Source of the DNA: Escherichia coli
GTDB lineage: Bacteria; Pseudomonadota; Gammaproteobacteria; Enterobacterales; Enterobacteriaceae
NCBI RefSeq assembly: GCF_965641715.1
Contig: NZ_OZ282459.1
DNA length: 4,779 nucleotides
Strand: one strand, 5' to 3'
This document shows positions 2,154-3,972 of the stretch, in pieces (the first letter of the stretch is position 1; each line of letters starts with the position of its first letter). Position numbers and translations under genes: made by a program. Under the pieces are notes generated by a model, which saw only the letters and a program-made list of their open reading frames with translations, made no database searches and was not told where the DNA came from.

Positions 2154-2474
2154 ATGCTCACGATGTGGGTGACGGAAGACGAACACCGGCGGCTGCTCGA
2201 GCGGTGCGACGGCAGGCAGCTGGCGGCGTGGATGCGTCAGACCTGCCTCGATGAGAAGCCGGCGCGTGCCGGCAGACTGCCATCGATATCCCCGGCGCTG
2301 CTGCGCCAGCTTGCAGGTATGGGTAACAACCTGAACCAGATCGCCCGGAAAGTGAATGCCGGTGGTGCCGGTCATGACCGGGTGCAGATTGTGGCCGCCC
2401 TGATGGCAATCGACGCGGGACTGGAGCGGCTGCGGCATGCGGTGCTGGAAAAAGGGGGGGGTGATGATCGTTAA
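2154..2474 (+). CDS. mbeC: MbeC/MobC mobilization accessory protein (ColE1 MbeC-like, 106 aa)
   Basis: ORF MLTMWVTEDEHRRLLERCDGRQLAAWMRQTCLDEKPARAG...LEKGGGDDR is recognised as ColE1-family MbeC. It is the first gene after bom, and its 3' end overlaps the mbeA start by 11 nt as in ColE1-type mob operons. Start could instead be the second in-frame ATG at 2163. Confidence 0.85.
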   Translation: MLTMWVTEDEHRRLLERCDGRQLAAWMRQTCLDEKPARAGRLPSISPALLRQLAGMGNNLNQIARKVNAGGAGHDRVQIVAALMAIDAGLERLRHAVLEKGGGDDR

Positions 2475-3972
2475 ATTTCATCCCCGGGGACGCGGTGGTG
2501 GTGCCGGTCCGGTGGATTACCTGCTGGGAAAAGACCGGCAGCGCGAGGGGGCGACCGTGCTGCAGGGAAAACCGGAGGAAGTCCGGGAGCTTATCGATGC
2601 CTCGCCGTATGCGAAAAAGTACACCTCCGGCGTACTGTCGTTCGCGGAGGCTGAACTGCCGCCCGGGCAGCGGGAGCAGATCATGGCCAGCTTTGAGCGG
2701 GTTCTGATGCCCGGGCTCGATAAAGACCAGTACAGCATTCTGTGGGTGGAGCACACCGACAAGGGGCGGCTGGAACTGAATTTCCTGATCCCCAACACTG
2801 AACTGCTGACCGGGAAACGCCTGCAGCCGTATTACGATCGAGCCGATCGGCCGCGCATCGATGCCTGGCAGACCGTGGTGAACGGCAGACTGGGGCTGCA
2901 TGATCCAAACGCCCCGGAGAACCGGCGGCTACTGGTCACGCCGTCCGCACTGCCGAAAACGAAGCTGGAAGCCGCTCAGGCGATTACACGAGGGTTGCTG
3001 GCCTTAGCCTCATCCGGGGAGCTCAAAACGCGCGAGGACGTCACAGGGGCGCTCACAGCGGCAGGTTTTGAGGTGGTCCGCACCACAAAAAACAGTATCA
3101 GCATTGCCGACCCGGACGGGGGGCGAAACATCCGACTGAAGGGAGCCATTTATGAGCAGTCTTTTAGCGCTGGCGAAGGACTTGGAGCAGCAATCGAAAG
3201 CGCAGCAGCAGAGTACCGGCGAGATGCTGAAAGCCGCATTCAGCGAGCACGAGAAGTCTGTAAAAGCGGAACTGAGCGCAAGCGCGAAGAGAATCAGCGA
3301 CGCCATCAGCGCCCACGAGCAGGGTATGACCGCGGCGATGCAGTCGAACCGCCTGAGCGTGCTGCGTATGGTCGGCCGGACGTGGCTGACCATCACTCTG
3401 GTCTCGGTACTACTGATCGCCACGAGCGGGAGCATTCTGTGGTGGCAGGGGCAGCAGATCACCGGAAATTACCAGACTATCCGGGCGCAGGAGCGGACGC
3501 AGGCCATGCTGTCGGAGAAGAACCACGGCGTGCAGCTGTCGCTCTGCGGGGAGAAGAAACTGTCCTGCGTCAAAGTGAACCCGAAAGCGGGAGCTTACGG
3601 GGAGGAAGGGAACTGGATGGTACTGGAGAGGAAATAGCTCATGACGGAACTGGAAAAACAGTTGCTGACCGCATTAGAGCAGCTACATCAGGACTACTCG
3701 CAAAGGCTGGACGAGTGGGAGAGCGCCTTCGCGGAATGGCAGAAGATGTCTGGTCTTATGCAACGGGAGAACGCGGCGCTGAACGAGCGCGTGACGCGCT
3801 TGAGTCAGCAGGTGGCGAACTTGAGCAGGCAATTACAGCGTTTGAGCCAGTAGTGCAGCGGCATGAAATGGCGGTGGCCGCCGAACGGGCATACGAGCAG
3901 CGACAGCACGAAAAAGAGCTGGCGGAAGCCCGTTCCCGTCAGCGGAGCTATAACGGTCCGACGCTGGGCTGA
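2464..3972 (+). CDS. mbeA: MbeA/MobA relaxase of the ColE1 (MOB HEN) family, 502 aa
   Basis: Counting from the ATG at 2464 (MIVKFHPRGRGGGAGPVDYLLG...), Tyr19 (TAC 2518-2520) and His97/Glu104/Asn106 (WVEHTDKGRLELN, His codon 2752-2754) fall at the residue numbers known for the ColE1 MbeA catalytic Tyr and HEN motif. G-rich SD (G8 tract) is immediately upstream. The track ORF starting at 2437 is an upstream in-frame extension. Confidence 0.9.
   Translation: MIVKFHPRGRGGGAGPVDYLLGKDRQREGATVLQGKPEEVRELIDASPYAKKYTSGVLSFAEAELPPGQREQIMASFERVLMPGLDKDQYSILWVEHTDKGRLELNFLIPNTELLTGKRLQPYYDRADRPRIDAWQTVVNGRLGLHDPNAPENRRLLVTPSALPKTKLEAAQAITRGLLALASSGELKTREDVTGALTAAGFEVVRTTKNSISIADPDGGRNIRLKGAIYEQSFSAGEGLGAAIESAAAEYRRDAESRIQRAREVCKSGTERKREENQRRHQRPRAGYDRGDAVEPPERAAYGRPDVADHHSGLGTTDRHEREHSVVAGAADHRKLPDYPGAGADAGHAVGEEPRRAAVALRGEETVLRQSEPESGSLRGGRELDGTGEEIAHDGTGKTVADRIRAATSGLLAKAGRVGERLRGMAEDVWSYATGERGAERARDALESAGGELEQAITAFEPVVQRHEMAVAAERAYEQRQHEKELAEARSRQRSYNGPTLG
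3152..3637 (+). CDS. mbeB: MbeB/MobB mobilization protein (161 aa), nested in the +1 frame of mbeA
   Basis: AAGGGA SD 7 nt upstream of the ATG. Product has a hydrophobic segment (TWLTITLVSVLLIATSGSILWW). Nested-gene layout is characteristic of ColE1-type mob regions. Confidence 0.8.
   Translation: MSSLLALAKDLEQQSKAQQQSTGEMLKAAFSEHEKSVKAELSASAKRISDAISAHEQGMTAAMQSNRLSVLRMVGRTWLTITLVSVLLIATSGSILWWQGQQITGNYQTIRAQERTQAMLSEKNHGVQLSLCGEKKLSCVKVNPKAGAYGEEGNWMVLERK
3641..3853 (+). CDS. mbeD: MbeD/MobD mobilization/entry-exclusion-type protein (70 aa), nested in the +1 frame of mbeA
   Basis: GGAGAGG SD 9 nt upstream; starts 3 nt after the mbeB stop in the same frame. Coiled-coil-like Q/L-rich sequence (LSQQVANLSRQLQRLSQ). 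Confidence 0.8.
   Translation: MTELEKQLLTALEQLHQDYSQRLDEWESAFAEWQKMSGLMQRENAALNERVTRLSQQVANLSRQLQRLSQ

Follow-up and report, generated by a model that had tools for sequence, protein, structure and literature searches.

The window, i.e., the whole 4779-bp stretch of DNA analyzed here, carries a relaxase gene into which two further reading frames appear to be nested, and the question arises whether this locus is a complete mobilization system or only part of one. In the initial annotation, the module was considered probably intact. This view is supported and can be extended, since an mbeC gene and a ColE1-like oriT are present as well. With high confidence, positions 1981–3972 constitute an intact ColE1-type (MOB-HEN/MOBP5) mobilization module, and the plasmid that carries it is complete, 4779 bp long and has a ColE1 replicon (Table 1).

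The window represents an entire circular plasmid, and its end-to-start junction is continuous in a circular Salmonella record. The replicon is of the ColE1 type and encodes the antisense RNAI. The backbone (1208–4357) is GC-rich (GC 0.58); next to it lies an AT-rich accessory segment (GC 0.39) encoding a ParA-family ATPase, a 133-aa protein and a DUF2158 protein. The plasmid is already present in public databases, and its module is a textbook system that is already known. NZ_CP122725.1 (E. coli, 4778 bp) matched the full plasmid length with 100% identity; its single difference is one G fewer in the run at 2454–2461, and its MbeA is identical. NZ_CP129389.1 (Salmonella Infantis pR13.1986_4k, 4779 bp) matched over the full length with 99.9% identity. 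This record and NZ_CP157101.1 (E. coli; full-length identity likewise within 99.9–100%) differ from the window by a few substitutions, and those in mbeA fall into its C-terminal half. MOB-suite typed identical public records as 'mobilizable, MOBP', which is a prediction only. Relatives of the relaxase were found in 3503 of 72,556 PLSDB plasmid records (about 5%), and DNA matching the mob region in 532 of 5426 complete E. coli genomes (about 10%).

Table 1. Features of the mobilization module and the replicon in the 4779-bp window.
Feature	Position	Strand	Description and evidence
RNAI (antisense RNA)	1222–1324	−	RF00106, 95.6 bits vs. gathering score 47
oriT (bom) core	1981–2066	−	nic octamer CTGGCTTA at 1982–1989(−); near-identity to ColE1
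mbeC, MobC/NikA-like relaxosome accessory protein	2154–2474	+	PF05713, E 3.5e-12; PF21983; RefSeq WP_023157587.1
G8 run, mbeC 3' end and mbeA ribosome-binding region	2454–2461	+	sequence; comparison with relatives
mbeA, MOB-HEN (MOBP5) relaxase, 502 aa	2464–3972	+	relaxase domain and long helix 1–280; predicted disordered and variable ~285–398; helical 400–494
Tyr19 codon, motif I catalytic tyrosine	2518–2520	+	translation; invariant in 16 relaxases
Motif III, H97-T-D99-K-G-R-L-E104-L-N106, HEN variant of the three-histidine metal site	2752–2781	+	H97, D99, E104 and N106 invariant
mbeB, 161 aa, nested in mbeA, +1 frame	3152–3637	+	PF04837 MbeB_N, E 2.5e-21, profile 1–52; RefSeq MbeB family
mbeD, 70 aa, nested in mbeA, +1 frame; mobilization/exclusion family	3641–3853	+	PF04899, E 6.9e-34

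The protein encoded by mbeA is a MOB-HEN/MOBP5 relaxase of the ColE1 MbeA family. It scored 835.3 bits with the NCBIfam model NF047848 (relax_MbeA_E1; cut-off 500), which covered residues 1–495, and 27.8 with PF03432 (threshold 24.6), and its predicted model shows an HUH-type relaxase fold. In the translation from 2464, Y19 occurs in AGPVDYLLGKD, H97 in ILWVEHTDKGR, and E104 and N106 in GRLELNFLIPN. These four residues are reportedly the mutagenised catalytic residues of ColE1 MbeA. A literature search on these residues together with MbeA returned unrelated papers only; thus, the numbering rests on direct alignment with ColE1. BLASTP against ColE1 MbeA (NC_001371, 2180–3730) revealed 55% identity (E 4e-177) without a gap up to about residue 290, so that the residue numbers are the same in both proteins and Y19, H97, E104 and N106 occupy the same alignment columns. 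The exact Tyr19 and HEN 97/104/106 numbering that had been proposed is borne out by this alignment, for which the initial annotation had called. The positions are also conserved more widely, with Y19, H97, D99, E104 and N106 unchanged across 16 relaxases encoded on plasmids of gamma-, beta- and epsilon-proteobacteria (34–93% identity). The HEN signature has been reported for MbeA (PMC5030251; PMC12857230).

Upstream, mbeC adjoins mbeA and overlaps its start by 11 nt. Its product was recognized as a MobC/MbeC protein by PF05713 (47 bits vs. 23.2) and by the NikA-like profile PF21983 (30.8 vs. 27). Comparison of upstream start codons suggests that mbeC possibly begins at an in-frame CTG at 2133 instead. 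The cognate ColE1-type oriT lies in cis to the relaxase gene. In ColE1, CTGGCTTA is located at 1462–1469 on the minus strand, and the ~85 bp around it hardly differ from the window. The ColE1 nick is reportedly located within CTGG/CTTA at 1469–1462, and the corresponding nick in the window would be expected between 1986 and 1985; the coordinates of the octamer in ColE1 agree with this position. With mbeC, oriT, mbeA and the nested genes present and uninterrupted, all parts of a ColE1-type relaxosome are there. A scan of 1850–4300 revealed no sigma-70 consensus promoter, and terminator-like hits were at background level. Four further open reading frames, 2158–2901(−), 3010–3462(−), 2043–2438(−) and 2495–2707(+), had no Pfam match and were regarded as open by chance in GC-rich DNA.

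What is established for ColE1 and for HUH relaxases outlines the steps by which such a module would act. The ribbon-helix-helix accessory protein MbeC would assemble with MbeA at oriT. MbeA, its metal ion coordinated by H97, E104 and N106, would cleave the minus strand within CTGG/CTTA, leaving Tyr19 covalently linked to the newly formed 5' end. The protein-DNA complex would then be passed to the coupling protein and the type IV secretion system provided by a conjugative plasmid in the same cell, while MbeB, which is probably membrane-anchored, and MbeD may aid transfer or exclusion. From the sequence, we infer nicking activity and a helper range for the module, and the plasmid should be mobilizable by a co-resident conjugative plasmid. 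As a complete mobilization kit is present, the ParA-type accessory module could spread via any compatible conjugative helper; such mobilizable cargo is routine for the ColE1-type plasmid family.

The nesting of mbeB and mbeD in the +1 frame, as noted initially, is confirmed by their frames and Pfam matches. The mbeA start lies at 2464 (mod 3 = 1), those of mbeB and mbeD at 3152 and 3641 (mod 3 = 2), and both genes are contained wholly within mbeA. All 70 residues of MbeD were matched by the PF04899 MbeD_MobD profile (1–70/70), and the equivalog model NF033829 scored 106.6 bits (cut-off 60), which places the protein in the MbeD/MobD family. MbeB was assigned to its family by the MbeB_N region and the nested position of its gene; no NCBIfam model matched it. 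Its hydropathy profile contains a single strongly hydrophobic segment (residues 78–96). Shine-Dalgarno-like sequences precede both genes, AAGGGAG 7 nt upstream of mbeB and GGAGAGG upstream of mbeD, and mbeB begins at an offset of 688 from the mbeA start in 14 of 14 relatives. Annotation of the nested genes is uneven between records, which list either mbeA or mbeB and mbeD together with a truncated 'nuclease'.

The part of MbeA whose coding sequence overlaps these frames differs from the remainder of the protein. Conservation between the window MbeA and 13 relatives was scored in 20-residue blocks. Among close relatives, residues 1–280 were conserved (0.79–0.99 per block), residues 281–400 were hypervariable with indels (0.31–0.57), residues 401–440 formed a conserved island (0.85–0.90), and residues 441–502 were variable. 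Identity to ColE1 MbeA was 18% over residues 290–398, and D394, R403, R405 and G450 were invariant. The full-length model showed helices at 240–280 and 400–494, and no secondary structure with a pLDDT of 25–35 over 285–398; its overall confidence was low (mean pLDDT 60.7), and the underlying alignment comprised only 14 sequences. Thus, residues ~285–398 are predicted to be disordered, although the shallow alignment could partly account for the low pLDDT. The Gly/Arg/Asp/Glu-richness described earlier for residues 270–420 is real, at 46% compared with 31% in residues 1–229, and Ala is equally enriched. With a 40-residue entropy of 3.2–3.6 bits, compared with 3.7–4.0 bits in 1–229, this region is compositionally biased and not a simple repeat. 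Its description as a variable linker holds for ~285–398, which is hypervariable and predicted to be disordered, but not for the conserved residues 401–440.

Composition and overlap are connected through the codon positions, a relation absent from the initial annotation. At mbeA codon position 3, GC content drops from 0.72 in residues 1–229 to 0.41 in 281–400, and at position 1 it rises to 0.83 (G 0.54) in 281–400. Position 1 of mbeA is the wobble position of mbeB and mbeD, and G or C at this position gives codons for Gly, Ala, Glu, Asp, Val and Arg. G+R+D+E+A accounted for 60% of residues in the mbeA frame, compared with 51 ± 3.5% in simulated mbeB recodings and 40% in the N-terminal domain. 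The Gly/Arg/Ala/Glu/Asp bias is, in part, a by-product of the overlap with the GC-rich wobble positions of mbeB and mbeD. Substitutions followed the same phase. Among close relatives only, a small and phylogenetically non-independent set, variable columns at mbeA codon positions 1, 2 and 3 numbered 3, 2 and 26 in the N-terminal 687 nt, as compared to 13, 5 and 3 in the overlap (Fisher p = 3e-6). At about 20% nucleotide divergence, the signal is saturated, and substitutions in the mbeB overlap were spread evenly across the three codon positions. Since overlap substitutions in close relatives occur mainly at mbeA position 1, selection there acts mainly on the nested genes: recent changes are mostly silent in mbeB and mbeD and non-synonymous in mbeA. 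For example, NZ_CP157101.1 carries Y302N and T317A in MbeA and an identical MbeB. Compared with a 97.7% relative, MbeB and MbeD show 99.4% and 100% identity, whereas the MbeA segments encoded at the same positions show about 97%. Thus, the overlap at 3152–3853 is under purifying selection mainly in the mbeB/mbeD frame, with the mbeA frame kept open and free to vary.

Two alternative readings of the overlap have to be weighed. The nested frames might be nothing but chance open +1 frames in a GC-rich gene. Indeed, when MbeA residues 230–464 were recoded synonymously, a stop-free +1 stretch of at least 161 codons was kept in 43% of the recodings, since mbeA codons seldom have T in position 2. ORF length was consequently rejected as proof of the nested genes, which rest on homology, the conserved offset, the Shine-Dalgarno-like sequences and the substitution pattern. 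Chance would have to account for Pfam and NCBIfam matches with E values of 1e-21 to 1e-34, for the offset of 688 kept together with Shine-Dalgarno-like sequences, and for substitutions gathering at the mbeB/mbeD wobble position. What a true chance ORF looks like is illustrated by the third +1 ORF (2495–2707), which lacks a family match and is not conserved. That mbeB and mbeD are not genes is thus hardly conceivable. Conversely, it might be the relaxase frame that is superfluous here, i.e., MbeA from ~285 onwards would be a dispensable read-through tail overprinted on mbeB/mbeD, and the N-terminal ~280 residues would be the working relaxase. Within the overlap, codon usage as well as recent substitutions track the nested frame, residues 285–398 are hypervariable and predicted to be disordered, and the relaxase of the Neisseria gonorrhoeae cryptic plasmid ends after 209 aa and is followed by a separate, non-overlapping MbeB-family gene. 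Nevertheless, the mbeA frame is open through the overlap in 14 of 14 relatives (43–100% identity), whereas only 0.35% of synonymous mbeB recodings leave it open. This argues that the tail is kept as a protein whose sequence is loosely constrained. The conserved island at 401–440, the four invariant residues and the curated MbeA model, which spans residues 1–495, also speak against dispensability, and a dispensable tail is considered unlikely.

The junction of mbeC and mbeA allows two further readings, one concerning the start codon of mbeA and one the G8 run. Initiation at the in-frame ATG at 2437, which is the first ATG in the mbeA ORF and has an equivalent in several close relatives, would yield a protein of 511 aa with a 9-residue N-terminal extension. 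However, the corresponding Met is missing from four relatives (L010, L011, L013 and L014), and in the distant relatives L016, L017 and L018 an in-frame stop occurs 8–14 codons upstream of the conserved MIVKFH start, whose codon is ATG or GTG throughout the 18 relatives examined. No Shine-Dalgarno-like sequence was seen before 2437, whereas a G-rich run of this kind (G8 plus GTG) lies just 5' of 2464. The NCBIfam profile alignment begins at residue 1 of the 2464 product, RefSeq has the same start, with a 1509-nt CDS, in NZ_CP157101.1 (WP_096317716.1), and the first core-sheet strand of the predicted model is built from residues 2–6. The start at 2464, which had been favored over 2437 on the basis of residue numbering, is thus supported by comparison with relatives, and initiation at 2437 is highly improbable. 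Nearly as improbable, if slightly less so, is that the module is compromised by slippage of the G8 run, e.g., to G7, which would fuse mbeC with mbeA. The ancestral form of the run is GGGGGGGATG, which is present in 97.7% relatives and three metagenome contigs. G7 occurs in two Belgian pig isolates and results in an in-frame mbeC-mbeA fusion, whose 605-aa product in a G7 record is called 'MbeA' by RefSeq; among near-identical copies, L002 and L028 contain G7 and L027 contains G6. Against a compromised module, the window, L001 and L004 all possess G8, and mbeC and mbeA are separate and intact in the window. Moreover, the sole indel of L002 and L028 falls within the plasmid's longest run of G. 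In the Taiwanese record L027, six of seven indel bases fall into G or T runs of at least 5, and one indel truncates mbeA; this concentration in homopolymers points to an assembly or sequencing error. The 605-aa 'MbeA' is a spurious-looking product of a one-base homopolymer difference.

If slippage is real in the G7 records, the G8 run may act as a switch between separate MbeC and MbeA (G8) and an MbeC-MbeA fusion (G7). A bolder proposal combines two separate ideas, namely that this switch modulates mobilization and that the C-terminal half of MbeA arose as an overprint on older mbeB/mbeD genes and has since been recruited (401–440). The combination is speculative and is given a low probability, below that of the dispensable tail. 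If the overprinting idea were true, the MbeA family would offer a tractable example of how new protein sequence arises de novo over existing genes.

The preferred reading, an intact ColE1-type module with two genes nested in the relaxase gene, can be placed among known systems. MobA of R1162/RSF1010 (MOBQ, PDB 2NS6), MobM, NES, TrwC and TraI share only 7–12% identity with the window MbeA, and no solved structure was detectable by an MbeA sequence search. In MobA and other HUH relaxases, the metal site consists of three histidines, whereas that of the window MbeA is composed of His, Glu and Asn. The cryptic plasmid of N. gonorrhoeae (NZ_CP048253.1) resembles the window in that MobC is followed by a HEN relaxase, with 59% identity to the window MbeA over residues 1–175, and then by an MbeB-family gene. 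It differs by its short relaxase and by the non-nested MbeB-family gene; thus, not every member of the family has this gene nested in the relaxase gene. ColE1 itself (NC_001371; oriT/bom, mbeC, mbeA, mbeB, mbeD) is a close match in architecture. The window has no rop between oriT and mbeC and no exc1/exc2, and its proteins differ in length from those of ColE1 (MbeA 502 vs. 517 aa, MbeB 161 vs. 172 aa, MbeD 70 vs. 77 aa). While the middle segment of MbeA and MbeB are only ~18–27% identical, identity of MbeA rises from 55% overall to 76% over residues 1–229. Gene order and overlaps are as in ColE1, and the mbeB offset of 688, the Y19/H97/E104/N106 columns and the CTGGCTTA oriT core are common to both plasmids.

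The guanine run at the mbeC/mbeA junction (G8 at 2454-2461) differed in length among near-identical plasmids, which carried G8, G7 or G6. The G7 version results in an in-frame mbeC-mbeA fusion, and the 605-aa 'MbeA' WP_432756888.1 is the RefSeq annotation of this fusion. Sequencing error is suggested as the source of the indels in the G6 record, since six of its seven indel bases lie within G or T runs of at least five. The genes nested in mbeA were annotated inconsistently, namely in the plasmid records L006 (NZ_CP069555.1), L004 and L005 and in the PLSDB tables. Two styles were found, i.e., mbeA alone, or mbeB and mbeD together with a truncated 'MbeA/nuclease' pseudogene. 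From the PLSDB tables mbeA was missing, even in the entry of ColE1 itself.

At the other end of mbeC, a strong AGGAGG (2122-2127) is positioned 5 nt ahead of the in-frame CTG at 2133 and not ahead of the annotated ATG at 2154. In related plasmids, the codon matching CTG 2133 was ATG (L008), TTG (L007 and L011) or CTG (L012). Given the placement of AGGAGG and these start-type codons, mbeC may start seven codons earlier than annotated, on a non-canonical codon.

Downstream of mbeA, an unannotated 39-aa ORF was conserved at the protein level, with 74% identity in a metagenome contig and 55% in an Enterobacter kobei plasmid, and had no match in Pfam and NCBIfam (see table). Further downstream lies a cer-like XerC/XerD site, recognised by its likeness to ColE1 cer. 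Homology of many other ColE1-type plasmids to the window ends at 4356-4361, and the GC content falls from 0.58 to 0.39 past this site. The end of homology and the GC drop fit module exchange at cer (PMC8683028). In the AT-rich accessory segment, the gene of the 133-aa protein overlaps the stop of the ParA-family ATPase gene by 4 nt, and the two look like a two-gene partition-like cassette. The DUF2158 gene was annotated in only some copies of the plasmid.

Features of the window and of the Neisseria gonorrhoeae record used for comparison
Feature	Coordinates	Strand	Remarks
Inverted repeat	2075-2118		21-nt arms with 81% complementarity, separated by 2 nt; oriT-mbeC interval
Unannotated 39-aa ORF	4072-4191	+	MRLFNVIETVLNCLYMALEIWDWLEKHFPVFKAFIRILA; downstream of mbeA
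cer-like XerC/XerD site	4329-4357		GGTGCGGGCAA-CGGATG-TTATGGTAAAT; likeness to ColE1 cer
DUF2158 small protein gene	4395-4580	-	PF09926, E 2.4e-6
133-aa hypothetical protein gene	4622-4779 joined to 1-244	-	spans window ends
ParA-family ATPase gene	241-1125	-	294 aa
Relaxase and MbeB-family gene of L020	467-1821 of NZ_CP048253.1		Neisseria gonorrhoeae

The inverted repeat between oriT and mbeC could be an operator or accessory-protein binding site. No counterpart of it is present in ColE1 within the part of the alignment that lies downstream of oriT; in ColE1, rop follows there. In the N. gonorrhoeae plasmid, the HEN-type relaxase comprises just 209 aa, and the MbeB-family gene comes after it as a gene of its own, with no overlap; this arrangement is an un-nested version of the mob module.
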